From contig VBAX01000051.1 in the NCBI GenBank assembly GCA_005883075.1, positions 1 to 58,433 on the forward strand: a DNA stretch of 58,433 bases. Reading direction: 5' to 3'. The notes beneath the pieces were generated by a model that saw only the letters and a list, made by a program, of their open reading frames with translations, searched no databases and was not told the origin of the DNA. The stretch is from Candidatus Bathyarchaeota archaeon (GTDB lineage Archaea; Thermoproteota; Bathyarchaeia; 40CM-2-53-6). A program made the position numbers and the translations under genes. Positions 5,668 to 37,320 of the stretch are shown here, one piece after another; positions within the stretch are counted from its first letter, which is position 1; every line of letters begins with the position of its first letter.

Positions 5668-5850
5668 AGAACCTTAGAATGGGGCTCTGCCTGATTTCAG
5701 TAACTTGCCACCCGAGCTACGATGATCGAGTACTCAGTGTCTGACAGCTCTTGTCCCGAAGGTTCTATGGACTGATTCGAAAGTGGTGCGATGGATACAA
5801 TAAAGCTCAGCCTCTATCGTGGATAGGGGTAACAAATAGGGACCGTAGCC

Positions 5851-9798: not shown

Positions 9799-12423
9799 GT
9801 GGCCCAGCCTCTGCCCTACATGGCCCTGAAAGATGCGCCAGTCCAGATCCGGCGAGCCGCCACCGTCGCCCAGATCTCCATCAGCATCACACGCGCCCTC
9901 GGAATACTATTCACCACCCTAATCATAGCCACCCTCCCAACATGGGTCCCTGGCCTCCTCGCCTACCAGACAATACCAGTCGCACTCCTCGTCCTCGCGA
10001 TCGGCTCGGTCATCGTCTCACGCAAAGGCAGCAGGATAAGGGAAGAGATCGCAGAGCGACAGTTCGAAAAAGTACGCCGCAGCACCTTCGCCACCGCCAT
10101 CCTAGGATTCATAATCGGCGGCATCATACCCGGCCTACTCTACATCTACCTCTACACCCGAATAGGCAACGTCATGGTCAAACAGACCCCTGACGATCCC
10201 AGAACAGTCTACCTCCTCCCACACCCCAGCGAGGGCATCTTCCTGGGCCGCTACCTCGGATGGATCGGAGCATACCTCCTCGTCCTCTACATCGGCTACA
10301 CCCAGCTATCACCGGGCCTCCGAGAAGTAAGCGACTGGCTCTCACCAGTCCTAGGCGTCCACTTCAACACGATGATCATCGCCCTATTCCTCGTCTTCAC
10401 CAACCCGCTAACCTATCCCCCACTACTCTACCTCTGGACCTTCGCAGGATTCCTCGGCGGCCTAATCGCCGGCGGAAAAATCAGACGAGGCTTCCTAGTC
10501 GGCATGACAGTATACCTCTCAACCCTCGGAGCACTAGGACTCGCAGCCCTCGCAATCTACCAGAACGTCAACCTCTCAACACTCTCCAGCCTTCCGCCAC
10601 CACCACCAGGCTTCTCGATCATAAGCGCCACCTCAGGACCCGTAGCAGGCGACATCATCCCGATCCTCATCCAAGGCGCGTCTCCAACAACCCAGATGGT
10701 AATCCAAGACGTCATACTCACCATGATAAGAAACGCTGGCCTCGTCTTCGCTGTAGCCACAATATCCGGTCGAGCCGCCTCCCTCTTCTGGCAAGGAGAC
10801 GTTTTCATCCTCAAAACATTCTGGAAGACGATCAAGACCAGGAAACCAAATCTGCCACAGACCACTCGCACCCGCGCCATACCAAAAAAGGGAATCCTCC
10901 TGCTCGCGCTCGCAATCCTCTTCCTTATCCCAACCCAGCATACAACCCAGCCCTCAACAATCACCCAAGCACCACCAGGCGGGCCTTACCAGCAAAACCT
11001 GGCAATCGGACTGGACATGCTCGGTGCCCCCAACGCCAGTTTACGAATGACAAACCTTGACCTCTCAAGCAAAGGTCTTGTCCTCGACAACAACTACGCC
11101 GGAAACAATCTCTCCCTCTTCATAATCAACAACAATTACTCACAATCCCTCGGCACCAGTTCTGGCCTCGGAATCCCAAGCTTCATCCTCGGACTATTCT
11201 CACAGCCCGCCCTGATCACATTCTATACAGGAGACCCAGCAACGACCCGAGGAGAATCCGATAATGTTGCAGCTCAATTCGCCCAAGCCCTAGGCGTCGG
11301 CTTCACCAAAGCCTTCGCCATTCCCTCAGGCCAAGGAACTGTCACAATTTATGCGCCTAACCCTGAACTCACAAACAACGACGCCCTCACACGAGTCCTC
11401 GGGCTCCTACCCGGCTCAAGCTTCTCCACCCTCATCAAACCAGCCAATCTCCAAACCCTACAATACTTGGCCGCAGTAGGCCTCGCAAGCATAAGCCTCC
11501 CAGCCCCACTCACCCAAACGCCCACCCAAGCATTCAGCTTCATCCTCAACACCCAATTCGCACGCCAATTCTACAAAGCAGGACAACACTATCTCAGCCT
11601 GAAAACACTATTTGGATTCCAGACTGGAATCGTCGGAGACACCAACTCAAACGCCTCCATCGTCTCCATCAGTTTCCAACGAGGAACAGTTCTCTACAGC
11701 CCGCTCGGACAAGTGCCGCCCTCCAACCCAATCTACGACAACTTCACCTCGACATACATCTACAACGCCACCATAACACCGAGATCAGACTTTGCAGCGA
11801 ACTTCACCTATCCATTCGCCCCAAACATAACCATACATAAAACCGTGAACCCGCCTAGCGGACCTCTAGGGACCGCCCATAACATCGTAGTTATGATCCA
11901 GAACTTCGACAACGTTACCGTCACAAATCTCAACGTCACCGATGACGAGGCGCCATCTTCATACCAGAAGACGCTCCAGATCTCGCCCAGCGGCGTACAA
12001 ACCGGCCAATTCGCCAACTTCCCTCCAAGCCAGACACAATTCCTCAGCTATACAGCAACAACAAAAAGCAGCGGAACCTATGTTCTATCGCCGGCAATCA
12101 TCGAGTTTGTCTGGGAAGCACCGAACGGAACGCGGGTCCGATACACGGTTGCCACCGACAATCCTCTGATCTCGTCATCAAGCGGACCCTGGACACAGTT
12201 CACAAGAACGTTCACCGACCTCCAGCCCTACTCCTACCTACTTCTTCTCCCTCTTCTACTCACACCAATCATTGAAACCCTGAAACTTCTCGGCAGACAT
12301 CGGAAGAGGAAACCCGAGCCCTGGGTCAGCGCACCTATGAGACCTCAAAACACACCTCCGCCCCCGCCTGCGCAAGCAGGACCCGACAAACCCGCCGACA
12401 TGCCGAGCTCCAAAAATCCTTGA
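9799..12423 (+). CDS. Large multi-pass membrane protein with extracellular domain and C-terminal Ig-like region
   Basis: 874 aa; N-terminal TM bundle, many N-x-S/T sequons, ITIHKTVNP...NVTVTNLNVTD Ig-like segment, C-terminal TM and Pro-rich tail. Confidence 0.8.
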   Translation: MAQPLPYMALKDAPVQIRRAATVAQISISITRALGILFTTLIIATLPTWVPGLLAYQTIPVALLVLAIGSVIVSRKGSRIREEIAERQFEKVRRSTFATAILGFIIGGIIPGLLYIYLYTRIGNVMVKQTPDDPRTVYLLPHPSEGIFLGRYLGWIGAYLLVLYIGYTQLSPGLREVSDWLSPVLGVHFNTMIIALFLVFTNPLTYPPLLYLWTFAGFLGGLIAGGKIRRGFLVGMTVYLSTLGALGLAALAIYQNVNLSTLSSLPPPPPGFSIISATSGPVAGDIIPILIQGASPTTQMVIQDVILTMIRNAGLVFAVATISGRAASLFWQGDVFILKTFWKTIKTRKPNLPQTTRTRAIPKKGILLLALAILFLIPTQHTTQPSTITQAPPGGPYQQNLAIGLDMLGAPNASLRMTNLDLSSKGLVLDNNYAGNNLSLFIINNNYSQSLGTSSGLGIPSFILGLFSQPALITFYTGDPATTRGESDNVAAQFAQALGVGFTKAFAIPSGQGTVTIYAPNPELTNNDALTRVLGLLPGSSFSTLIKPANLQTLQYLAAVGLASISLPAPLTQTPTQAFSFILNTQFARQFYKAGQHYLSLKTLFGFQTGIVGDTNSNASIVSISFQRGTVLYSPLGQVPPSNPIYDNFTSTYIYNATITPRSDFAANFTYPFAPNITIHKTVNPPSGPLGTAHNIVVMIQNFDNVTVTNLNVTDDEAPSSYQKTLQISPSGVQTGQFANFPPSQTQFLSYTATTKSSGTYVLSPAIIEFVWEAPNGTRVRYTVATDNPLISSSSGPWTQFTRTFTDLQPYSYLLLLPLLLTPIIETLKLLGRHRKRKPEPWVSAPMRPQNTPPPPPAQAGPDKPADMPSSKNP

Positions 12424-16313: not shown

Positions 16314-16937
16314 CTAGCCAAGAGGTTCTGCAGAGAACAGGCCTCTAGCAAGTATACCCGCAACCCGCAAAGGTTCAGGCATTCGCGAGACGAATGCCGA
16401 AGCTTTCAAGATCAACCTGGTCTCACGAATTGAGCATCCGAACTGTTCAAAGAACACGGGACCTTCACTAGTTGTCCGAAGTTTGTGTATTGGGCCAAGT
16501 GATCTGATCAGTTCCCATCTCTTCTCCCAATCAGGAAAATGTTTGACCAGGGCACGCTTCACAGCCCTGTTATCCGGCCGGGAACCGACGACCACGATCA
16601 CCGGCGCCTTGCACAATTTCAGGACCTTCCAAGGGTCGATAAGATTGAATCCTCCGAAGGTCACGCCCGACAACAACACCGGAATCTTGTGGGAATCTCT
16701 GAGGAGAAACTCGGCTTTTCTAGTTGCGTCCAGCCCGTCAACTGTAATCCAGTCAGCTCTGAATTGATGAAGGTGAGGGCCTTTCAGCCAGACGGCTAGG
16801 AGAGGAGCGTGTCGGACCTTATCATCGGTTTTCGGCGGAAACGGGCCATCATCTATCCCAATACATCTAGAGACTTGTTTGATGTTTGAGGACGCTCCGT
16901 GGAACAAAGGTAAGCAACCCACGAACCATCTCGTCAA
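16314..16937 (-). CDS. DUF99 family protein (endonuclease V-like fold); start uncertain, probably near 16883
   Basis: IGIDDGPF, ITVDGLDAT, LSGVTFGGFNLID, PEPLRVA motifs. Confidence 0.88.
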   Translation of the reverse strand: MTRWFVGCLPLFHGASSNIKQVSRCIGIDDGPFPPKTDDKVRHAPLLAVWLKGPHLHQFRADWITVDGLDATRKAEFLLRDSHKIPVLLSGVTFGGFNLIDPWKVLKLCKAPVIVVVGSRPDNRAVKRALVKHFPDWEKRWELIRSLGPIHKLRTTSEGPVFFEQFGCSIRETRLILKASAFVSRMPEPLRVAGILARGLFSAEPLG

Positions 16938-18114
16938 CGTTGAATGAAGCGGTCACTGACCGAGCTTCGACGCCGAGCCGTATCTTCTTTGTTCGACCGT
17001 ACCGGCCGAAACTTACTACTCGCGCGTTTAGCACCCCCATAATGTCCAGCTCGTTGAGCAGTCCGCTAACCCTTCGCTGGGTGAGGGGTTCGACTGATCC
17101 AGCGCTGCACAGCTCGCGGTATACCTCGTATACGTCGCCTGTTACCGAACTCTCTTTCCTGGTATTCTCTAGCTGCATGACTGAGATTAGTAGGATTCGG
17201 GAGTGGAGGGGGAGGGATGATAGGGCTTCTGCCACGCGGTCATGTTCGACTTTCTGTTGTGCTTCGCGAACGTGGTTTTCGCCGACACGTAGCTCGCGTG
17301 ATCTTTCGGCAATCTCAGCGGCTACTCTGAGGAGATCGAGGGCGCGTCGTGCGTCACCGTGTTCTCCTGCGGCCAGGGCTGCGCAAAGGTGGAGAGCGCC
17401 TTCATCTAGAACTCCGGATCGGAAGGCGAGTTGTGCCCGTTCCTTTAGAATGTCATGTAGTTCGTCTGAGGTGTAGGGTTTGAACACGACTTCCTCCTCT
17501 CCTAGCGAGCTTAGGACTCTGGGGTCTAGGAAGTCTTTGAAGTGGAGGTCGTTGGATATTCCTATGAGCCCGATCCAGCCTTCGGTCAGTTTCTCGTTTA
17601 TCCTGGTTAGCTCGTAGAGTAGACTATCGTCTTCGCTTCTCTTCACCAACGCGTCTATCTCGTCCAGGACGACGAGGAATGCGGAGCCGCGTGATTGGAG
17701 AGCGCTTCTGAACCGGTCCAGAAGCTCGCCGACCGCTAGTCCAGTGAAGGGTACTTCTCGACCCAGAGATCTGCACAGATCGGCAATGACTCTGTAGTTT
17801 GTTCCTGCGAGACGGCAGTTGACGTAGCTCGTATCGAGGGCTCGTCCGTGTTCGCGAGCCTTCCGCTGTAACCGATCTAGAACGAATTTGGTCACGATTG
17901 TCTTTCCTGTTCCAGTTTTGCCGTAGGCGAAAAGGTTGGACACTCGATCTTTTGTCAGAGCTGGGGCGAGCACGGATCCGAGCCGGCGGATCTGTTCTTC
18001 TCTGTGTGGAAGGGTTGCAGGCATGTAGTCATGCCTGAGGAGGTTTCTGTCCCGGAAGACTTCTCCTCCTGACAGGACCCTTTCGAAGATGAGATCCAAT
18101 CCTTGCTGTGACAA
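16867..18114 (-). CDS. cdc6: Orc1/Cdc6 replication initiator
   Basis: LPHREEQI, Walker A GKTGTGKT, Walker B VVLDEID, GDARRALDLLR, C-terminal wH GRYGRT. Confidence 0.97.
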   Translation of the reverse strand: MSQQGLDLIFERVLSGGEVFRDRNLLRHDYMPATLPHREEQIRRLGSVLAPALTKDRVSNLFAYGKTGTGKTIVTKFVLDRLQRKAREHGRALDTSYVNCRLAGTNYRVIADLCRSLGREVPFTGLAVGELLDRFRSALQSRGSAFLVVLDEIDALVKRSEDDSLLYELTRINEKLTEGWIGLIGISNDLHFKDFLDPRVLSSLGEEEVVFKPYTSDELHDILKERAQLAFRSGVLDEGALHLCAALAAGEHGDARRALDLLRVAAEIAERSRELRVGENHVREAQQKVEHDRVAEALSSLPLHSRILLISVMQLENTRKESSVTGDVYEVYRELCSAGSVEPLTQRRVSGLLNELDIMGVLNARVVSFGRYGRTKKIRLGVEARSVTASFNVDEMVRGLLTFVPRSVLKHQTSL

Positions 18115-20759: not shown

Positions 20760-22268
20760 TTACTGGAAGTTGATCATCTTGACATCAAGGGTTTTCAGGT
20801 TAACAACAGGAAGGATTCCTGGCTTGGGGACTAGTCCCATCCGTTTCTGATAGTCCGTCTGTCCTTGCCATGCGCCACTATTCACTATCGTTGTTCCTCT
20901 GTAGAGGCCTGCACCTGAAACGTGGATGTGTCCCGAGGTAAAAACGTCCGGGACCCGATCTATCACTAGGAAGTCCTCTTGCTCGGGCCCAATGGGTGTC
21001 ATCTTCCCGTACTCGGGAGATAGATGACGGGCTCGCAGCTGGTACTCCATTGCCTCTACTGGACGTTGATAATCGAGCCCGGGGACTCCGCTCAGGATAT
21101 CCATCAGGCTAGTTCCATGGTAGAGTAGAAACTGGACCCCATGCAAGCGAACCTCCGCTGGATCTCCCAGCGAAACAATCTTCCGCGAGTCGTAAACAGG
21201 TCCGGCGAAATCTTTCGGGATGGCGGGTTGTGGCAGGGCCTGGCGTACTGCGTCATGATTCCCCGGTATCAATACCACGTCCATGTACTCTGGGATCTCG
21301 CTCACGAATTTCGCTGCGATTCGGTACTGTTCATAGATGTCGGGAACCGCAAGGTCCACCTCTTGGCGAGGATAAATCCCGATCCCGTCGACAAGGTCGC
21401 CCCCGATCAGAACATACTTTACTCGCTCGGCGACTTCGCGCTGGTTCGGTGTTCCAATCTCTCCTTTCAACCAGCTTAGGACCCGGCGGAACTCATTCTC
21501 GAGAAACACTTTGCTCCCGACATGAACATCGGATATTAGCGCGGCGTAGATCTCTTCGTTTGCATGATTGGGCTTTCTATCCGGTATCTCGGGGAGGACA
21601 ATGCTTTCCGCGACCAGAAGGGGGCCTGCGCTCTTCCGAGCCTGGATGTAGATGACTTGGTCCCTGACTATCTTTCTCGCCATCTCATACACTGTAGAGT
21701 TCTGTCGTCCAACTAGGACGGTAGCTTCATCCTCGTAGTCGTCAACCGTCAGAAAGATCCTGTCGCCTTTCTCTCTCTTTTCGAGGACCATGCAGATGAA
21801 GCGGCCCCGTCCATTTGATCCACCTTGAAGCGCGTCGGAAATGGTCCCGGCGTTTCGGGTGTCCATTCTCTGCCTGAAGAGCAGGCTCATCTTGTCGAAA
21901 CGGTTTCTGAAATAATGGAGAAAATCATCAAAAGCGCCCGTCGTTCCGAGCTTACCTGTAGGGTCCGAGACAACTTCTAGCCGAGACTCAAGCTCCTCAG
22001 CAAACCGTCGTGCATGCCGCAAACCAGCATGCTCTGCCTCCGTAACTTTGCTGGAGAGGTCTAGCTGTTCAGCTGCCTTGAGAACGAGGTCTCTGCTTAT
22101 CGATGAGGGTCGTGGTTCCACGGTTCCAGCGACTCGAAGGACTTCTCTGACAAGAGGGTCGAGCTGGCCTGCGCTGCTGATCTCCATGAGGGTTTTGAAG
22201 GCGTCGCTTTCCATCTGGAAACCTGCTTCCAGTATGGTGCCGATTGCCCTCTTCATCTCTTCAGACAT
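20760..22268 (-). CDS. polB: DNA polymerase D small subunit DP1
   Basis: ISDVHVGS, GDLVDGIGIYP, PGNHDA, YHG, RARHLSP, SGHIH, NSGAWQGQT. Confidence 0.96.
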   Translation of the reverse strand: MSEEMKRAIGTILEAGFQMESDAFKTLMEISSAGQLDPLVREVLRVAGTVEPRPSSISRDLVLKAAEQLDLSSKVTEAEHAGLRHARRFAEELESRLEVVSDPTGKLGTTGAFDDFLHYFRNRFDKMSLLFRQRMDTRNAGTISDALQGGSNGRGRFICMVLEKREKGDRIFLTVDDYEDEATVLVGRQNSTVYEMARKIVRDQVIYIQARKSAGPLLVAESIVLPEIPDRKPNHANEEIYAALISDVHVGSKVFLENEFRRVLSWLKGEIGTPNQREVAERVKYVLIGGDLVDGIGIYPRQEVDLAVPDIYEQYRIAAKFVSEIPEYMDVVLIPGNHDAVRQALPQPAIPKDFAGPVYDSRKIVSLGDPAEVRLHGVQFLLYHGTSLMDILSGVPGLDYQRPVEAMEYQLRARHLSPEYGKMTPIGPEQEDFLVIDRVPDVFTSGHIHVSGAGLYRGTTIVNSGAWQGQTDYQKRMGLVPKPGILPVVNLKTLDVKMINFQ

Positions 22269-29941: not shown

Positions 29942-32900
29942 TCACTGAACACTCAAAACTGTGTAGGGCAACGTGGTGCTGTCGACCACTACGGTGATCG
30001 TAGTTGGAACAGTAGTGCTTGTATTGCTGATCCTGTAAATGTCGGTTGTCGTTAGGGTCTCAGCCTTTGCAAGGACCTGAACTGTCGTCGTACTCGTTAT
30101 TTTTATTCCAAGAATCCATCGAGTGTTTCCCCCTTGCTCGTATTGGTATCGGTAGGCCAGAGTGCCATTGACGGTCGCCTGTGTTGTCGATATGCCGATG
30201 GTGCTGACAGCTTTTGTCGTTGCGCTGCCCACTTCGATAGAGCTAGTAGGGTCTTGAATGAAATAGTGGCCCACCTGTTTCGAAGATCCATCGACCACCG
30301 CCACCATTTCTGGCACCGTCAGATTTCCTTGCGTTCCATAGTATGGTATGACATAGATCAGGCGCCCGTTCACCGAATACAGGAGTATGTTTCCAACCGT
30401 CCAGTCGGGGTGGAGCGTTAACTGGGTTTTGATTATCGGGTCGGTCACCACGGCTGATATGGCCGAGTTGGGTCCGATAACTGTCGTTCCCTCAGGGAAC
30501 CTGATCAGATAGACTTGCCCTGTCCGGACTCCTGCTGGAGCGATGTAGAGACCTGCAAGGTTCTGAGATGGGCTGTGGTAAATTTCCACCAGCCTGACGG
30601 CAGCCCACGTCAGGGTCCCGTTGATCGGCATGATTATGAACCGGGTGGTTTCAGTAGATTGAAGGAAGACATTCCTCTGCCATTGCAGCGGATCTGTCTG
30701 GAAGTAGAAATTGTACACGTCTTGTTGAGTGTTGAAGTATGTCTCAGGATATCTCAGCTGAGGGAGGAGCCAGGAAGGCATTTGCTGGTTCCACTGAGGA
30801 TACATGGAATTGTAGAACGACCTGACGTAATCGTTCTTGCCACTGTTGTACAGATACCCTGTAACATCTCCGGTCTTCATGTCGGTGAGCGTTGCTGCGA
30901 AGAGTCTGAGAATCGATGTGTCAGCATGGTCTGGATAGTCTGCGAAGTTGCTAGGACTCTGCCAGTCTATCCAAACCCAGTGCAGCAGGTAGATGTTTCC
31001 CTGTCTGTCCACCACCGGGTAAGGATCTGGATCTAGCCGCATGTTGGGCAATAGAATGTTAGAGATTCTGGCGTCCGCATCTCGGTATTCCAATGCTTTG
31101 ATATTGCCGTAGGCTCCGTTTGCGAAGTCGAACCTTCCCTGCCAGAAGAACTTCCAGTACAACCAGAAGCCCTTGTAGGTATAGTCCGCTGTTCCATTGT
31201 AGGAAGGCGGTCCTGTGTAGCCTGATAGGTGGGTCTCGTTGAAGCCTGGAATATTCAGGTAGACCTCGTCCACCGACTGCCATAACCCTCCTTCTCCATA
31301 GTAGACCTGGGGAGATTGGGTCAGGTTCCAGATCTTTGTTATGTCCACAGCTTGTGTCGTGGCCGCGTCAACCGCGAGGACCTTCTCCGAATGCGTCAGC
31401 AAGAGATGTTGGGTGCGCCAGACATCAGGGTCGTTCGGGAGGCCAGCTTGTATAAGCTGGAGAATGGATACCCAGTACTCTTTGCCGTTGATGTAGATGA
31501 TGTCGACAGGAGCGTTGTCGATGGACATCCAGTTGACCCCGACTAGCGGTTTCATGTTCAGTCGGGCCGACTGGTTGGTGAATATGCGGATGTGGTCCAG
31601 TGTATTAGTCTGGTTTCCTAAGCTCTTTATGAGAGACTGATCAGCGCTAGTGACCGAGTCCACTCCGTACGCCCAGCGAGTGTACTGTATGGTTGGGACG
31701 TAAGCTGGGCTCCATTGATAATTGATGTATTGGCCTGACTGGGCCCGAAGATAGGTCCCGTACACAGGAAGCGTGATTGTTGAAGCTAGGACGATTGCGA
31801 GTATTACGAGCCCTTTAACCAGGGTGATCTTGATACGCAGTATTCTCGGGGTTCGTGTGAATCCGGCCACGAACGCTACCCCGATCATCACGATGACCAG
31901 GGTGGAGAGAATGAAGGATGTGCCTACGTCATAGACCCAGGCCCCACTGCTTAGCACTAGGTAGATAATTGGTAGAGCGGCAATGACGAATACGTTGCTG
32001 AGCGCGATCCGAGACATCCCGAAGGCCTTCTTTGAAAGTCCCACCATAGCGTTTGCAAGGAGCGCGACTCCGAGTCTGATTCCTACCACAGCAAAGGCTA
32101 GGCCGATTATTGACAGGATGAACTTGAAGACTTCAAATGTGAAGACGTTGTCGATGCCGAAAGTCGGCGACACTTGGTAAGTTCCCGATAGTCTTGTTGC
32201 GAGGATTGAGAAGTAGTTCTGTACTTGTGCGAACCAGGTGCCGTTTGTTTGGACAAGATATTCTGTATGGTGACGAATCTTAGGGCGATGTCATTGGCGA
32301 TGGCTGCCGCGATTCCTAGGGCGAGGAGAAACTTGATCGTCGTCCACGCTAGGAATGGGGGAGAGGAGACTGGGAACTTGTCGTTCCATTGCAACTTGCC
32401 ATTCTTCGATAGGACGGCATGGTCAGGGGTCTCTCCAATATCCCAGTCAAAGGATGGTCTTGGGCCGGATTCATAGTAGCTTCTTCTGGTGGACTGCATG
32501 ATCGCTCCCAGGTTCGTCCGGAATAGTAGTCGAAGAATTCCGAGGAGTTTGCTGTGCATGTAGAAATGTCTCTTCCCATCGCTTCCCGTAACTGACGAGA
32601 TTCTCGGGTCGCTGAGCATGAATAGAGCCGTCAGGAGGAGAGTTGTCCAGATGACCGCTCCGTTCAGGTACTGAAGGTTGAGAAAGTTGATTCCTGCTTT
32701 CGTGGCATAGGTTGAATATTTCACGTCAAAGGTGAGACCATTGTTCACCCCGAGGGTAAAGGCAGCGAAACAGGCGAGACCGAGAAGAATATGGTATACA
32801 ACCCAAGGGGTCCGAGAACCAGACTGGCGTTGAACCCTTGGAGACAAGAATGATCCAACGAGTACTAGGGCCAAAAGCAGAGCAGCGGTAGCAACGAACT

Positions 32901-33054
32901 CTGTGGCAAGGACCCAGAGCCCAAGCCCTGTGTTGAAGACGGAAAGTTCTCTGAGAAGAGCGAACTGTATTCCGAGAACGATTATGATGGCGAGAATTCC
33001 AGTGAGGAGACCTATTCCAAAGGATCCCTTCAAACCAGCTCGGATCTCTGTCAA
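29942..33054 (-). pseudogene. UPF0182-like membrane protein split by a 1-nt frameshift near 32260
   Basis: ORFs 32107-33054 and 29942-32173 join as ...TIQ[fs]YLVQTNGTWFAQVQNYFS...; motifs QYTRWAYG, QVYYGE, DPDPYPV, QLRYPE, VGNILLY. Confidence 0.7.
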
Positions 33055-33167: not shown

Positions 33168-35411
33168 TTATGAGAAGTCATTGGCTGCGATTCTGTCTAG
33201 GTCTCTCCGCCTTGGTTCGGTCCACAGGTCGAGTGGAATCAGTCTACCAGCATACTTCGCGATAATTGTCAGCTTGTCTGAATCGCACCTTGAGCACTTT
33301 GCATGGACTCCGGTATCGACGTAATAACATGACTGACACCGGGACAATATTCTAGAAAACGTGAAGTGTTTGACTCCCGATTCTGCGAGTAGTTGGGATG
33401 CTTTCGTCAAACCTACGGCCTCTACTTTGTCTCCTAATAGGAGCGGCAGGATTGATCCTCCGTCGAGGAATCTCTGAACTTCTCCCTCAATAGAGGCGCG
33501 TGACGAGAATGGAATCTTCTGGGTAAGCGGGATCGCCGACATATCAGTGTAGTATGGGTATCGCTTGGATCCTTGATACACGATTGTTGAGAAACCGTAT
33601 TTTTCAGAGTCGATACCCGCAAGCCTCGATGATGCTTCGGGAGACGGATGAAGCCCAACCCGAATTCTAAGCTTACGAGAGTCGGTTTCCGATATCGCGC
33701 GTCTCGCGGTCTCGATGATTTTTTTGACAAAGACAAGAGAATCCTTGTTGTCCACATCCTTCTTTATGTGGTGCTTTACCGCCTCGTTCAATCCGAGGAG
33801 GCTAATCTCTGCCATCGGGTGAGATCCATAGTAGGTGCTCCCATTTGTCTGCCAAGAAAGCAGCGGCAGAAGTCCCTCTCGCATTCGTTCATGAATAGCT
33901 TGTCCGCGAATCTCTAGGGCCCTAACTGCCTCGTCTACGGCGTTCGTCACTCCTTGGAGAAATCGCTCGTCTTTCCATGCTGATTCATACGCGATTCTTG
34001 GCAGATTGACTTGGACCGTTCCCACCAGCGCTCCTCTGGCCACATCGCCCATGCTGTCGGTGACGAACATGCAGCCGTCTGAAGATACGGTGTAAGATTC
34101 TCCCGGATTTTGTATCAGATAATTCATGATGGAGTATCTTAGAGAGGTCTCGTGGGCCATTGAGAGAAGTCCATCGGGTTCAGAGAGTTTGTTGCGATCG
34201 AGTCTCAGGGTGATCGAGGGATTGACAAGTGGATTGTCTTGAGCAATTTCTTGAGCTGCATCGATCATTGTGCGGAGTAACTCCTCAGCTTCGCGTGCGT
34301 AGTCTGCGTACTTGCCCTCTGTTTTTCCGTTGGGACCAATCGCATCGGATTGTCCGAGGATGTTTGGGGCGACACGATCGAGCCCAATGGTCGACCGTGA
34401 AGGAAGTGTGTTTGAGAAACCTTCCCAGTTCAGCTGAGAGAGAAAGAGTCGGACGGCTTCTTGGACCCTTTGACTTGGGACGCCCTTGACGAATGGTGCG
34501 AGAAGGATGTTAACGTGATCGAGTACTTGCTCCTCGGATACCTGCCCTTCGGTCACTCTTGCCAGCCGCAGCAGTGTTCCTAGCGCGCTTTCGAAAGAGA
34601 TGGGTGGTTGCGATCCAGGCAGTCCTTTTCGGAAGAACGGGCGTGGGTCATGTGAAAAGACGCTGGGTTTGAGGATCCAGGACTCCGCGTCTTCTAGGTG
34701 GATTTGTCCCGAGAAATGTGCATCGACCAGAGGTCGTGGAAGACTATTGAGCAAGACATACTCTTCGGTCACCGCCGCGCCTGCGGACGATTGAACCCAA
34801 GCCGAGTCAAGGCGCTTCTGTCCTGCCTCCCTTAGAAGGACTGTCACGTCGTTGACGGGGAGTCCAAGTCGAGTTAGTTTGTGGCGGTACTCTTCGAGCT
34901 TTCTCTCGACGAGGATGGTATTGACAAGCTCGCGTACTAGGGGCGCAGTGAGGTAAGTTGTCCCGAATCGCAAGAGCCTCTCTTCTGCTTCAGACGCAAT
35001 CTCGTCAGCTAGGCTCTGAGGCATACCGGCTTCAGTTACAAGTGATGAAGCGATTCTGGTCCGGTCAAATTCCTCTATCGTCATTTTGGAGGTTCGGACG
35101 AACAGGCGGCCTCGCTTGACCGCGACCCATTCCTCTAAGTCGCGCGAGAACTCGACGAGTATCTTTCCGAGGTCTGTTATACTGTACTTTTTCGTGCCTT
35201 TTTCGTTCGCAACCAAACCGGCCTTACGAAGGGTTTTGAGATGATAGACGAACTTTCCAGCGTCCCGCACAGGATCCATCTTCGCTTCGTACATTATCTC
35301 AGTGTACGGAAGAGGACCTTTGGAGACTAACAGCTTGAGAATGTGAAGCCGAACGGGGGCAGAAGCAGCGTCTAGAACATCCGAACTGAAGCGCTCGTAG
35401 GATCGCTGCAA
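33168..35411 (-). CDS. wHTH + ATP-cone + degenerate class III ribonucleotide reductase (NrdD-like) fusion
   Basis: ArsR-like N-terminus; VRTSKMTIEEFDRTRI ATP-cone; NrdD-like AHFSGQIHL, VNLPRIAYE, GLNEAV, YYT, CQSC/CSRC; catalytic motifs altered. Confidence 0.85.
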   Translation of the reverse strand: MQRSYERFSSDVLDAASAPVRLHILKLLVSKGPLPYTEIMYEAKMDPVRDAGKFVYHLKTLRKAGLVANEKGTKKYSITDLGKILVEFSRDLEEWVAVKRGRLFVRTSKMTIEEFDRTRIASSLVTEAGMPQSLADEIASEAEERLLRFGTTYLTAPLVRELVNTILVERKLEEYRHKLTRLGLPVNDVTVLLREAGQKRLDSAWVQSSAGAAVTEEYVLLNSLPRPLVDAHFSGQIHLEDAESWILKPSVFSHDPRPFFRKGLPGSQPPISFESALGTLLRLARVTEGQVSEEQVLDHVNILLAPFVKGVPSQRVQEAVRLFLSQLNWEGFSNTLPSRSTIGLDRVAPNILGQSDAIGPNGKTEGKYADYAREAEELLRTMIDAAQEIAQDNPLVNPSITLRLDRNKLSEPDGLLSMAHETSLRYSIMNYLIQNPGESYTVSSDGCMFVTDSMGDVARGALVGTVQVNLPRIAYESAWKDERFLQGVTNAVDEAVRALEIRGQAIHERMREGLLPLLSWQTNGSTYYGSHPMAEISLLGLNEAVKHHIKKDVDNKDSLVFVKKIIETARRAISETDSRKLRIRVGLHPSPEASSRLAGIDSEKYGFSTIVYQGSKRYPYYTDMSAIPLTQKIPFSSRASIEGEVQRFLDGGSILPLLLGDKVEAVGLTKASQLLAESGVKHFTFSRILSRCQSCYYVDTGVHAKCSRCDSDKLTIIAKYAGRLIPLDLWTEPRRRDLDRIAANDFS

Positions 35412-35467
35412 GAAAAGGTCAAGAGCCTTCTACCCCAAACCTGTTTAAAAAATTGTACTTGACTACA

Positions 35468-35713
35468 TCATATTGGACTCTGACTTCTGTCAGGAGCGGT
35501 TCGGCGGCATACAGTGCACGTTTTCCAGCCTAACGTGTCCACGCTGAAAAGCTGTTCCCGCCCGCAACTCGTGCAGTACTGGTGGAATCCTGTGGGATGC
35601 CGCGGTTCTGATAGAGTCTCGGTCGATGTTGCCGCTCGCATGTTCGGGTCTTTCTTAGGAATAGGTTTCGCCAAACGCTGGAGGTAGTCCTTGCTGAACT
35701 TGAGTTTTGGCAC
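35468..35713 (-). CDS. Small zinc-finger protein
   Basis: YCTSCGR...WKTCTVCRR. Confidence 0.65.
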   Translation of the reverse strand: MPKLKFSKDYLQRLAKPIPKKDPNMRAATSTETLSEPRHPTGFHQYCTSCGREQLFSVDTLGWKTCTVCRRTAPDRSQSPI

Positions 35714-35886: not shown

Positions 35887-37320
35887 TTGATAGCCTCGGG
35901 AACGAAACCCGATCCTCAAGCTCTCGAATCCTCGGTAGTCCGTGCGACATCATCTCCTATGATGAACATGTTCTTGGAGTTTCTCGAAGTTCCCGGAAAC
36001 GTCCTTCTCATCCAAGGAGCACCCGGCACTGGGAAAACAACTCTCGCCTTCGAGATCCTGAATGCTGTTGCGGACTCGCGCAGGGTCTACGCGTCCAGCA
36101 GGGTCTCACCCGTGAAGTTGCGTATTCAGTTTCCTTGGATCGATGAGGTTATCGATTCTATGTCCGGGAGATCGTCCAAGGCCAGCTGGAATGACGAATT
36201 CCACGACCTCCGCGGCTCCGACACCGACAGTGTCTTTTCGAAGGTCGTACGCCTGAAACAGGCGAAACAGAAATCAATCCTTGTCGTAGATAGCTGGGAG
36301 GGAGCGTTGAGAAACGCGACACCTGAAGGACGCAAAATGTTGGAGTCAGCCGTCATGTCCGAACTAGATCAGACAAAAGTAAGCGTGATTCTCGTCAGTG
36401 AGGCCGAACGAGCCGACAGCCTCGGTTACCTCGTCGACGGAGTCGTAACCCTCGAACAGAGCGAGCTAGATGGGAGACGAATCAGGTCCCTTGGAGTGGA
36501 CAAGCTAAGAGGATTCAGAGTCCAGAGCCAACATTTCCCCTTCTCCCTGGAAAAGGGAAGGTTCACTTTCTTGGACCAAGAATACGAAAACGGTCCACCG
36601 AATATAGTGAGAAACCCAGAGAAAGTTCCACACACAGAAACCCACTACTCCACTGGGAGCAGGGAACTCGACCTGTTACTGGGAGGTGGCATCCGGAAAG
36701 GTGCTTTCTTCATGATCGACACGGACAGCAACGTTTCCCCGCAGTCGCTGAGATTGTTGATCAATATGATCAGGTCCAATTTCGTCAACCAGGGCGGGGC
36801 CTGCTTCAGCGTTTCAACCGGGACCTTCAGCTCTGAATCCTCAGCGGAGGCACTGAGATCCTACGTAGGCGACAAAGCCTTGGCAGATAAAGTTCGGATA
36901 GTCGAATTCAACTCGCAGCTCCCTTCGAAGCCTTGGAGGCTAAAGTTGAGGGGGCAGCTAATGAGCGATCTCGCAGAGTTCTACAGATCATGGAACGCCT
37001 TGAAAGAAACGTCGAGTGGCATGATGCTAACTATGAACTTTGACAAGCTCGTGCAGGTCTACGGTGAGGAGCTGACACTTCCGGGTTTTACAGAAATAGG
37101 AGAAGGTCTGCGGGACGAGGGGGCCTTCAGCATCGGAATATCGTCACGTCCCACTAAGGTGCGTGATGAGTTTCTCAGACAAGCGGACTATCACATAAAA
37201 GTCCAAAGTTGGAACGGTCATCTTCTGATCTACGGCGTGAAACCTTTCACGCATGTTCACGGGGCTACTTTCAACTTCGACAAGGGATACCCGTCCCTCG
37301 ACCTCATAGAGATCGTCTGA
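35887..37320 (+). CDS. Two-domain KaiC/RecA-superfamily ATPase (GvpD-like)
   Basis: GAPGTGKTT, VVDSW, YLVDGVV, KLRG; second domain STGSRELDLLLGGG lacks Walker A Lys. Confidence 0.85.
   Translation: MIASGTKPDPQALESSVVRATSSPMMNMFLEFLEVPGNVLLIQGAPGTGKTTLAFEILNAVADSRRVYASSRVSPVKLRIQFPWIDEVIDSMSGRSSKASWNDEFHDLRGSDTDSVFSKVVRLKQAKQKSILVVDSWEGALRNATPEGRKMLESAVMSELDQTKVSVILVSEAERADSLGYLVDGVVTLEQSELDGRRIRSLGVDKLRGFRVQSQHFPFSLEKGRFTFLDQEYENGPPNIVRNPEKVPHTETHYSTGSRELDLLLGGGIRKGAFFMIDTDSNVSPQSLRLLINMIRSNFVNQGGACFSVSTGTFSSESSAEALRSYVGDKALADKVRIVEFNSQLPSKPWRLKLRGQLMSDLAEFYRSWNALKETSSGMMLTMNFDKLVQVYGEELTLPGFTEIGEGLRDEGAFSIGISSRPTKVRDEFLRQADYHIKVQSWNGHLLIYGVKPFTHVHGATFNFDKGYPSLDLIEIV

Follow-up and report, generated by a model that had tools for sequence, protein, structure and literature searches.

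A winged-helix, ATP-cone relative of class III ribonucleotide reductase in Bathyarchaeia, a candidate archaeal analogue of NrdR

The nearest functional precedent for the gene described here is bacterial NrdR, which joins a Zn-ribbon DNA-binding domain to an ATP-cone; the available text of PMC9110341 places NrdR boxes upstream of, or overlapping, the transcription start of ribonucleotide reductase (RNR) genes, adds that NrdR often regulates its own gene, and describes it as rare in archaea. Archaeal RNR regulation is essentially unknown. Our subject is a gene on contig VBAX01000051.1 of a Candidatus Bathyarchaeota archaeon, a metagenome-assembled genome (MAG; assembly GCA_005883075.1); the contig, analysed over its whole 58,433 nucleotides (nt), is called the window below. 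The product, 747 amino acids (aa) long, carries a winged helix-turn-helix (wHTH) and an ATP-cone ahead of what looks like a complete class III RNR (NrdD). Judged from its sequence, its phylogenetic distribution and its gene neighbours, we put at roughly 65% the probability that it senses nucleotides and regulates the transcription of RNR genes, in the manner of NrdR. The likeness to NrdR lies in the proposed function only. Here, as there, a DNA-binding domain accompanies an ATP-cone, a palindrome lies upstream of RNR genes and the gene has a special promoter of its own; however, the DNA-binding domain is a winged helix instead of a Zn ribbon, there is no match to TIGR00244, the cone is without the canonical Lys-Arg, and the protein is ~5 times larger, with a complete and apparently dead class III RNR body.

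Three other groups of proteins invite comparison. The class III NrdD proteins of T. maritima (4COL/4U3E), P. copri (8P2S) and phage T4 (1H79) have the same barrel fold and, in common with our protein, an ATP-cone at the N-terminus, the NLPR loop, a Zn ribbon at the C-terminus and the NRDD match. Our protein differs in that it has no C175-type Cys, conserves neither the thiyl Cys nor the radical Gly across its family, has a degraded HxHD motif, Arg for the Tyr that follows the Gly and an added wHTH, comes with no activase that could be found, and scores far under the equivalog cut-off. The N-terminal 90 residues match wHTH families of the ArsR/SmtB type (HTH_5, HTH_20) and DUF7347 just over the cut-offs. 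ArsR proteins are small and stand alone, sensing metals or stress, whereas this wHTH is fused to a cone and a barrel of ~550 aa; sequence-specific DNA binding as a dimer, in the ArsR/SmtB manner, would be the expectation, and candidate sites are what has been found for it. Finally, the aminoacyl-radical enzymes, in which Ala, Ser or Thr stands in for the radical Gly and which come mostly from MAGs, are likewise proteins of the glycyl-radical enzyme fold that lack the canonical Gly, but as the available part of PMC11528403 has it they keep the catalytic Cys and cognate activases, are PFL-type and have NrdD as outgroup, none of which holds here. A wHTH-NrdD fusion or a non-catalytic NrdD is not described in the literature searched, which lay outside subscription journals and supplements; term look-ups in the available portions of 10.1101/2022.04.23.489257, PMC11226230, PMC3019208 and PMC9110341 were negative as well.

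Architecture of the gene and its predicted fold

The gene and its parts, all on the minus strand, are as follows.

33168..35411, minus strand: whole gene, encoding a wHTH, an ATP-cone and a very probably non-catalytic NrdD-like body; open reading frame (ORF) of 747 aa with a TTG start
35133..35381, minus strand: N-terminal wHTH (aa 11-93; ArsR-like/DUF7347), from HTH_20, HTH_5, DUF7347 and HTH_45 matches
34887..35102, minus strand: ATP-cone (aa 104-175) with the variant start VRTSK, from PF03477
33204..34778, minus strand: NrdD-like alpha/beta barrel body (aa 212-736), conserved catalytic residues absent, from PF13597 (E 5e-52) and Foldseek
34657..34680, minus strand: lost C175-type Cys site (aa 244-251; V251), from alignment to E. 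coli C175
34032..34091, minus strand: remnant of the thiyl-radical finger loop (aa 441-460) with non-conserved Cys447, from alignment, substitution rates and a low-confidence block of the model
33285..33338, minus strand: retained Zn ribbon CxxC-N10-CxxC (C692, C695, C706, C709), invariant in a 64-member alignment
33243..33257, minus strand: degenerate glycyl-radical loop KYAGR (aa 719-723), Gly722 present and the next aromatic residue changed to Arg, from HMMER alignment

An earlier note, written from the sequence, had read the gene as an intact ORF with these three modules, and Pfam, an AlphaFold2 (AF2) model and fold matches bear it out. The motifs that it quoted are also in place: KYAGR with Gly722 at 33246-33248, DGC at aa 445-447 with Cys447 at 34071-34073, KPSVFSHD at 248-255, EEQ at 293-295, HPSP at 588-591, YYTDM at 620-624 and the CQSC/CSRC pair at 692-709.

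Profile scores for the wHTH in the query clear their Pfam cut-offs narrowly (HTH_20 27.5 bits against 27, HTH_5 22.7 against 22, DUF7347 28.3 against 27.6, HTH_45 25.5 against 25.5), and across the family DUF7347 matches 64/64 members, HTH_20 50/64 and HTH_5 34/64. The AF2 model predicts a helix-helix-helix-wing topology; the putative recognition helix (aa 51-63, 'AGKFVYHLKTL') is conserved phylum-wide, and L28, H57, Y76 and G82 are invariant wHTH residues in the 64-member alignment. For the cone, PF03477 gives the query 23.7 bits in the Pfam scan, where 25.8 is the cut-off, and 26.7 bits when run against the genome, while 63 of 64 family members match the ATP-cone profile (best E 9.9e-13). 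The model places strands at 104-106 and 112-114, followed by helices; many cone residues are invariant in the same alignment, and the start 'VRTSK' replaces the canonical 'V-x-K-R-D-G'.

Computed from the 64-sequence family alignment, the AF2 model is confident (pLDDT 89.8, pTM 0.79), with the finger-loop segment as its sole low-confidence block, and contains the ten-stranded alpha/beta barrel of the glycyl-radical/RNR type. The top Foldseek matches are the NrdD proteins of T. maritima, P. copri, S. thermophilus and T4, with E down to 2.6e-27, the T. maritima protein reaching a TM of up to 0.77 on the target at a root-mean-square deviation of ~4 A and 18% identity; other glycyl-radical enzymes rank far behind the class III RNRs. 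A homodimer prediction for two copies of the barrel (residues 196-690) scored 0.13 against a mark of 0.42, and this speaks neither for nor against a dimer.

Catalytic residues and selection

We take C175, C384 and G681 to be the essential residues of E. coli NrdD. The E. coli nrdD sequence (NC_000913) has them at these positions, with the Zn-ribbon Cys at 644, 647, 662 and 665. Query V251 aligns with C175, so that this Cys is absent; C447 aligns with C384, and C692, C695, C706 and C709 align with C644, C647, C662 and C665 and are invariant in 64 sequences. E. coli 'YGGTT' becomes 'SEEQV', 'TPSE' becomes 'HPSP' and 'YYTNS' becomes 'YYTDM', and the query retains the NLPR loop. The glycyl loop, 'RRVCGY' in E. 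coli and 'RIVGY' in T. maritima NrdD, reads 'KYAGR' in the HMMER alignment, which matches Gly to Gly and relative to which MAFFT sets the loop one column off. The fingerprint RVxG[FWY] that the available text of PMC11528403 gives for glycyl-radical proteins is broken twice in the query, Arg becoming Lys and the aromatic residue Arg. The departures from the NrdD consensus listed in the earlier note are thus real, though the strings it gave for the consensus, GGQ and TPAE, were only approximate. Likewise, two features of PcNrdD given in PMC11226230 are altered: the HxHD substrate-triphosphate motif reads HLED here, the conserved Tyr that follows the Gly is Arg, and of HxHD the family conserves only the first His. 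Because HxHD is degraded, the ATP-cone rather than the barrel is the likely sensor.

The losses are shared by the family. The C175 column holds Cys in 0/45 orthologues from Bathyarchaeia MAGs. Cys447 is found only in the nearest clade; where identity is 64-90%, its column has F, N, P or L, with Phe in one orthologue that is 90% identical. Gly722 is lost in a clade of ~40% identity, and its column is Ala or Ser in part of the family. Among the sites counted earlier as retained, only the Zn ribbon is therefore a family feature, and Cys447 and Gly722, which vary in close orthologues, are not. A broader survey scored three radical features (a Cys close to the column of C175, another close to that of C384, and the motif RxxG[FWY]) in the 114 of 151 retrieved representatives that measure 560-830 aa, the 37 of other sizes being left out. 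All three occur together in 0/83 representatives bearing the wHTH recognition-helix motif; singly, RxxG[FWY] occurs in 1/83, Cys within 3 columns of C384 in 10/83, and Cys within 2 columns of C175 in 2/83. The four sequences with the full set all belong to the 31 representatives without the wHTH motif. Homologues in the ammonia-oxidiser family f19 go further still, ending directly after the Zn ribbon or lacking even that, so that the radical C-terminus is absent. The NCBIfam equivalog model for NrdD, TIGR02487, gives the query 155.5 bits against a cut-off of 326.35, and the query lies still further under the cut-offs of the other NrdD equivalog models.

Selection on the gene was assessed as the ratio of nonsynonymous to synonymous substitution (dN/dS) by the Nei-Gojobori method for 11 pairs among 19 close sequences, pairs at ~64% identity being saturated (dS undefined); two loci with incomplete ORFs (L013, L035) and four with interrupted or over-extended frames (L048, L056, L058, L059) were left out of this and of the orthologue table. 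The whole gene gives 0.06-0.11; by part, the wHTH has 0.01-0.04, the cone ~0-0.01 and the barrel 0.04-0.13, and the loosest segment is the finger loop, at 0.2-0.37 in 80%-identity pairs. In a working enzyme the pattern would run the other way; here constraint is strongest in the wHTH and cone and weakest in the finger loop. In keeping with the dead scaffold that the earlier note proposed, then, the orthologues are without the canonical motifs and under strong purifying selection, and we consider it close to certain that the protein is non-catalytic.

Two sets of irregular copies deserve mention. Loci L048, L058 and L059 hold interrupted copies of the wHTH gene, with first frames of 44, 247 and 305 aa, and are either pseudogenes or assembly frameshifts. 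Seven gene calls (P0176, P0190, P0202, P0219, P0224, P0257 and P0266) combine a cone with an NrdD-like body and have neither a recognisable wHTH motif nor the full catalytic set; they are truncated calls or a cone-only, non-catalytic intermediate form.

RNR genes, neighbourhoods and candidate regulatory sites

The query MAG (1.90 Mb, 87.6% complete) has this gene as its sole NRDD match. A complete, B12-dependent class II RNR is encoded on another contig, C136 (NF005122, 1434 bits against a cut-off of 859), so that the protein is not the only RNR of its genome; no class I RNR beta subunit was found in the MAG. The absence of the activase NrdG from the window, noted earlier, extends to the rest of the MAG, where, at this completeness, TIGR02495, TIGR02491 and PF13353 are unmatched and the only three radical S-adenosylmethionine matches all lie in frames of >500 aa. 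Our comparison set was 41 related genomes of one order, spread over 10 families and 14 genera. The class II profile PF02867 matches 36/41, and four of the other five have a canonical nrdD. NrdG exceeds its cut-off in 7/41, in 0/22 of the query's genus and in 0/5 of the phylum-level genomes examined; in five of the seven (G026, G030, G031, G038, G039) it adjoins a separate canonical nrdD, and in G027 and G040 it lies on a different contig from the canonical nrdD paralogue. NrdR (TIGR00244) exceeds its cut-off in 0/41, and the query MAG likewise yielded none. Moreover, this protein supplies the only ATP-cone match in the query MAG, the class II RNR having none. A separate point concerns class II RNRs with stretched frames of ~1,190-1,300 aa, in which PF02867 extends over ~2.6 kb (G016:C27, G019:C48, G021:C38 and many phylum-level genomes); this suggests intein insertions in several lineages.

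The wHTH gene itself is present in 41/41 relatives. An exhaustive search of representatives returned 261 clusters at E <= 1e-30, and the N-terminal 200 residues (wHTH plus cone) have matches, in frames of ~640-790 aa, in 208 of the 301 genomes that sample the phylum. Some families are full or nearly so (f19 43/43, f12 16/16, f32 18/18, f25 23/25) and others have no match (f28 0/20, f20 0/13, f34 0/10, f36 0/10). Four contigs with the archaeal gene carry bacterial MAG names (L017, Dormiibacterota; L018, 'bacterium'; L040, Acidiferrales; L047, Methylomirabilota) and are probably mis-binned. Small shares of the region are also found in four soil metatranscriptome runs of one study, in which contigs 95-99% alike cover parts of the gene, together with an 81-aa ORF upstream and the start of a KaiC-like gene; given possible DNA carry-over, and with start, end and strand unreadable, this is a hint only.

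Two kinds of RNR neighbour recur. In Bathyarchaeia, an ATP-cone-NrdD paralogue comes immediately after the wHTH gene, on the same strand, in G027, G032, G040 and the genome of L050, and tandems with a canonical nrdD make up loci L050, L056/L060, L061 and L062 in four genomes. None of the catalytic features ('RPFCQEHDL', 'NSQCCR', the Zn ribbon and 'SRITGYY') is missing from the tandem paralogue, which shares with the wHTH family the unusual cone start 'VRTS[KR]IEFE.FD'. In the Nitrosopumilaceae-type family f19, the wHTH gene and a class II RNR are neighbours in 40/43 genomes; in 39 they form a tandem whose downstream gene is the RNR, and in one they diverge (four loci were inspected). Of the remaining three, two have the genes on different contigs of fragmented assemblies and one has them 5.8 kb apart. 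One genome of the Bathyarchaeia family f11 (G155), read from coordinates, also has the tandem with a class II RNR. Apart from RNR genes, a convergent pyrB (aspartate carbamoyltransferase) is the neighbour that most Bathyarchaeia loci keep, over identities of 40% to 99%.

A FastTree phylogeny of the barrel region (504 columns; 43 chosen sequences, of which 26 wHTH proteins, seven taken as wHTH-less and 10 canonical) gathers 26/26 wHTH proteins, with P0176, a gene call lacking the wHTH, in one clade whose support is only 0.76. This clade lies beside the canonical NrdDs with the VRTSK cone, and three cone-only, non-catalytic sequences branch between. By descent, as the tree and the shared cone start indicate, the protein is a non-catalytic derivative of class III RNR, from an archaeal nrdD of the VRTSK-cone clade. 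The simplest history would be a tandem duplication of nrdD, loss of catalysis in one copy and gain of the wHTH, with the active copy later lost in most lineages, leaving pyrB as the neighbour.

Upstream of the gene is a conserved promoter element.

35442..35460, minus strand: TATA-like promoter element 'AAGTACAATTTTTTAAACA', 31-49 nt before the start codon, deeply conserved

Its 'TTTTTTA' core occurs 22-62 nt before the start codon in 43/43 orthologous loci, mostly embedded in '[AC]CTACA[AG]TTTTTTAAAC'. The query genome has a single copy: the position weight matrix (PWM) of the element gives it 31.8 bits, the runner-up site gets 16.2, and 'TTTTTTAAA' is found nowhere else in that genome. Conservation of non-coding DNA at 40% protein identity suggests specific recognition, and the gene is perhaps autoregulated through this element.

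A different sequence stands upstream of RNR genes. In the query's family f1, a 40-nt block is conserved upstream of class II RNR (13 loci), and a PWM built solely from these promoters has its top match in the intergenic region upstream of nrdD in 4/4 tandem loci, upstream of the canonical nrdD in L063 and L065, and in L086; no promoter match was found with it in L064, L066 or L067. The common core, upstream of RNR genes of both classes in the query's order, is the inverted repeat TTTAKAC-N6-GTMTAAA, which in the query MAG lies at 5719-5738 of contig C136. Allowing <=1 mismatch, a scan of the 41 genomes returned 45 distinct sites, of which 24 (hand count) are just upstream of an RNR gene, in 24 genomes of families f1, f2, f4, f5, f6 and f9. 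The sites in G025 (0 mismatches), G029/G037 and G036 come from genomes unused in defining the pattern; the distance from site to RNR start codon, there as well as in G022 and G034, is 65-136 nt. Between palindrome and class II RNR ATG there are ~95 nt that resemble a leader (C136 ~5740-5832 in the query MAG, and L068-L082), with conserved blocks 'ACTCCTGC..TTCTCGCTCCG..GGGGAAGAAG'; this could be a structured 5' untranslated region.

Regulator or not: competing explanations and the surrounding genes

How the protein would work as a regulator can be outlined. The ATP-cone would sense the ATP/dATP state, whereupon the wHTH would bind DNA at RNR promoters, with TTTAKAC-N6-GTMTAAA as the candidate site in the query's order. 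Since the palindrome includes a TATA-like TTTATA, bound protein would probably block TBP/TFB, and repression would be the simplest outcome; the protein may act at its own unusual promoter too. The dead barrel would serve for oligomerisation and as an allosteric scaffold, and the whole would be the archaeal counterpart of bacterial NrdR. This analogy, first drawn in the earlier note, gains from the 0/41 count for NrdR, from the position of the protein as sole ATP-cone of the MAG, from RNR adjacency in two distant lineages and from the palindrome.

A good deal weighs against it. DNA binding, nucleotide sensing and regulation are all inferred from the sequence. The absences in the query MAG are those of a genome 87.6% complete, and RNR adjacency is absent in the examples checked from f23, f26, f32 and f38. 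In the cone, the Lys-Arg pair is T107-S108; PcNrdD binds nucleotide with Lys7, Arg8, Arg87 and Arg91, according to the available part of PMC11226230. Conserved basic residues do lie nearby, at R106, K/R109 and, in the last helix, R176, K178 and R181. As to the palindrome, its sites are not enriched (45 against 69 for a reversed control pattern, both hand sums), nor is it enriched in the query MAG over mononucleotide shuffles; hence only the location of the sites is informative. It was not found upstream of RNR genes in f3, f8 and f10 of the order, nor at <=3 mismatches upstream of the class II RNR in 5/5 Bathyarchaeia genomes of other orders in which an RNR start could be recognised, and was not seen in four ammonia-oxidiser intergenic regions. 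(In L104/G155 the fetched stretch ended inside the wHTH gene and contained no RNR start; the single site there departs from the pattern at 3 positions.) The putative recognition helix is the same across the phylum in its conserved residues, yet no phylum-wide operator was found. A PWM from the five nrdD-upstream sites does find the RNR promoter as its top match in the query MAG, but this cross-validation is partly circular because the five sites were picked with the f1 class II PWM. What ties the palindrome to the protein is co-occurrence and the absence of NrdR, and another transcription factor could bind the box. Two attempts at a motif shared with the gene's own promoter were set aside: a single rigid motif was dropped when the own-element PWM (43 loci) missed the RNR promoter of the query MAG, where its best score is -1.3 bits and ~1,210 of 3.79 million positions are as good or better, and a gapped pattern, GTACAA-N0-5-TTTAA, picks out only these two promoters in that genome but was defined post hoc and carries no weight.

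The same observations bear on the alternatives. A nucleotide-sensing regulator might have its main targets elsewhere, in pyrBI, in replication or cell-cycle genes, or in its own gene only. The convergent pyrB of most Bathyarchaeia loci points that way, as do the Orc1/Cdc6 and PolD-small genes in the window and the unique, deeply conserved own-promoter element, whose rigid PWM misses the RNR promoter; however, RNR adjacency recurs independently (with class III in Bathyarchaeia, with class II in 40/43 of f19 and in G155), the palindrome tracks RNR genes, and the link to pyrB looks like a leftover of an ancestral order pseudo-nrdD / nrdD / pyrB. We find such targets fairly improbable. It is also conceivable, and we judge it unlikely, that the protein acts on RNR at the protein level, as allosteric partner, inhibitor, chaperone or nucleotide buffer, its wHTH serving for protein contacts. 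The RNR tandems would fit a physical partnership as well as regulation, barrel and Zn ribbon are conserved, and a phylum-wide operator was not found; but the wHTH is the second most constrained part and matches DNA-binding families, a partner that is now class II and now class III is awkward for a specific interface, and many genomes are without RNR adjacency.

That the protein is still a radical enzyme, whether an unusual class III RNR or an aminoacyl-radical enzyme with Ala or Ser for Gly, seems to us very improbable. The query itself keeps Gly722 and Cys447, which tells against a regulator and for an enzyme, and the NLPR loop and Zn ribbon remain; in part of the family the Gly column is Ala or Ser, and Ala, Ser and Thr radical enzymes do exist (PMC11528403, in its available text). 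Those enzymes, though, keep the catalytic Cys and have cognate activases nearby (same text), whereas here the full feature set occurs in 0/83, Cys447 gives way to F, N, P or L in close relatives, NrdG passes its cut-off in 0/22 of the genus, and the finger loop is the least constrained segment. Furthermore, homologues without the radical domain occur in f19, among ammonia oxidisers, which are aerobes. The lost catalytic residues and the interrupted frames of L048, L058 and L059 could, lastly, betray a functionless relic on its way to becoming a pseudogene. Set against dN/dS of 0.06-0.11, intact genes in 41/41 relatives and 208/301 phylum genomes, a confident model and, weakly, the metatranscriptome contigs over parts of the gene, this has next to no chance of being right.

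Should the regulator be real, an enzyme would have been turned whole into a transcription factor with its allosteric domain kept, with a testable operator (TTTAKAC-N6-GTMTAAA), a testable ligand (ATP/dATP) and an evolutionary series from active nrdD through a cone-only dead copy to the wHTH fusion. A wider proposal, which we advance tentatively and rate somewhat short of an even chance, is that much of Thermoproteota controls its supply of deoxynucleoside triphosphates through this one unrecognised master regulator, a fossilised class III RNR that has kept allosteric nucleotide sensing and puts it to work on a winged-helix DNA-binding domain. If true, its reach would take in Bathyarchaeia and other lineages as well as the ammonia-oxidising Nitrososphaeria; the NrdR principle would have been invented independently, out of an enzyme, and the protein would be a molecular fossil of anaerobic RNR use by the ancestors of today's aerobic ammonia oxidisers.

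The matter of annotation is more immediate. Proteins 87-99% identical to a member of f19 carry the name Candidatus Nitrosotenuis and are labelled 'anaerobic ribonucleoside-triphosphate reductase', 'ArsR family transcriptional regulator' or 'helix-turn-helix domain-containing protein'. Ammonia oxidisers being aerobes, the first label is very probably wrong, and on cultured organisms of importance to the global nitrogen cycle it would wrongly suggest an anaerobic capability. Were only the dead-enzyme part of our account true, thousands of database annotations would need correction.

Among the surrounding genes, one lies just upstream.

35468..35713, minus strand: small Zn-ribbon-like ORF (81 aa), upstream of the gene; no family match, association uncertain

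It is conserved at 85-96% and only within the clade of at least 80% identity. In 3/4 ammonia-oxidiser loci inspected (L096, L097, L102), a different ORF of ~55 aa with two CxxC motifs, seen by eye, occupies the same place, and the small Zn-ribbon-like ORF may be a recurring small partner. Beyond it is a divergent KaiC/GvpD-like P-loop ATPase of 477 aa (35887-37320, plus strand), kept with the small ORF in the nearest clade only. On the other side, a UPF0182-like membrane protein is represented by two overlapping ORFs, 29942-32173 (743 aa) and 32107-33054 (315 aa), both on the minus strand; since only some close relatives have them in the space from the wHTH gene to pyrB, they form a variable insertion in a conserved neighbourhood.

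The earlier note had also placed the gene near the replication origin. The only sign of this is an Orc1/Cdc6 gene (Cdc6_C, Cdc6_lid and AAA; 16867-18114, minus strand) ~15 kb away, around which convincing origin repeats were not found; an origin nearby is plausible, and its proximity plays no part in the argument for a regulator. A gene resembling the small subunit of DNA polymerase (DNA_pol_E_B/Metallophos; PolD-small) lies at 20760-22268, minus strand, ~11 kb from the wHTH gene. An ORF of 874 aa without a Pfam match, at 9799-12423 on the plus strand, sits where GC skew in the window is most negative (-0.35 at 10001-12000).

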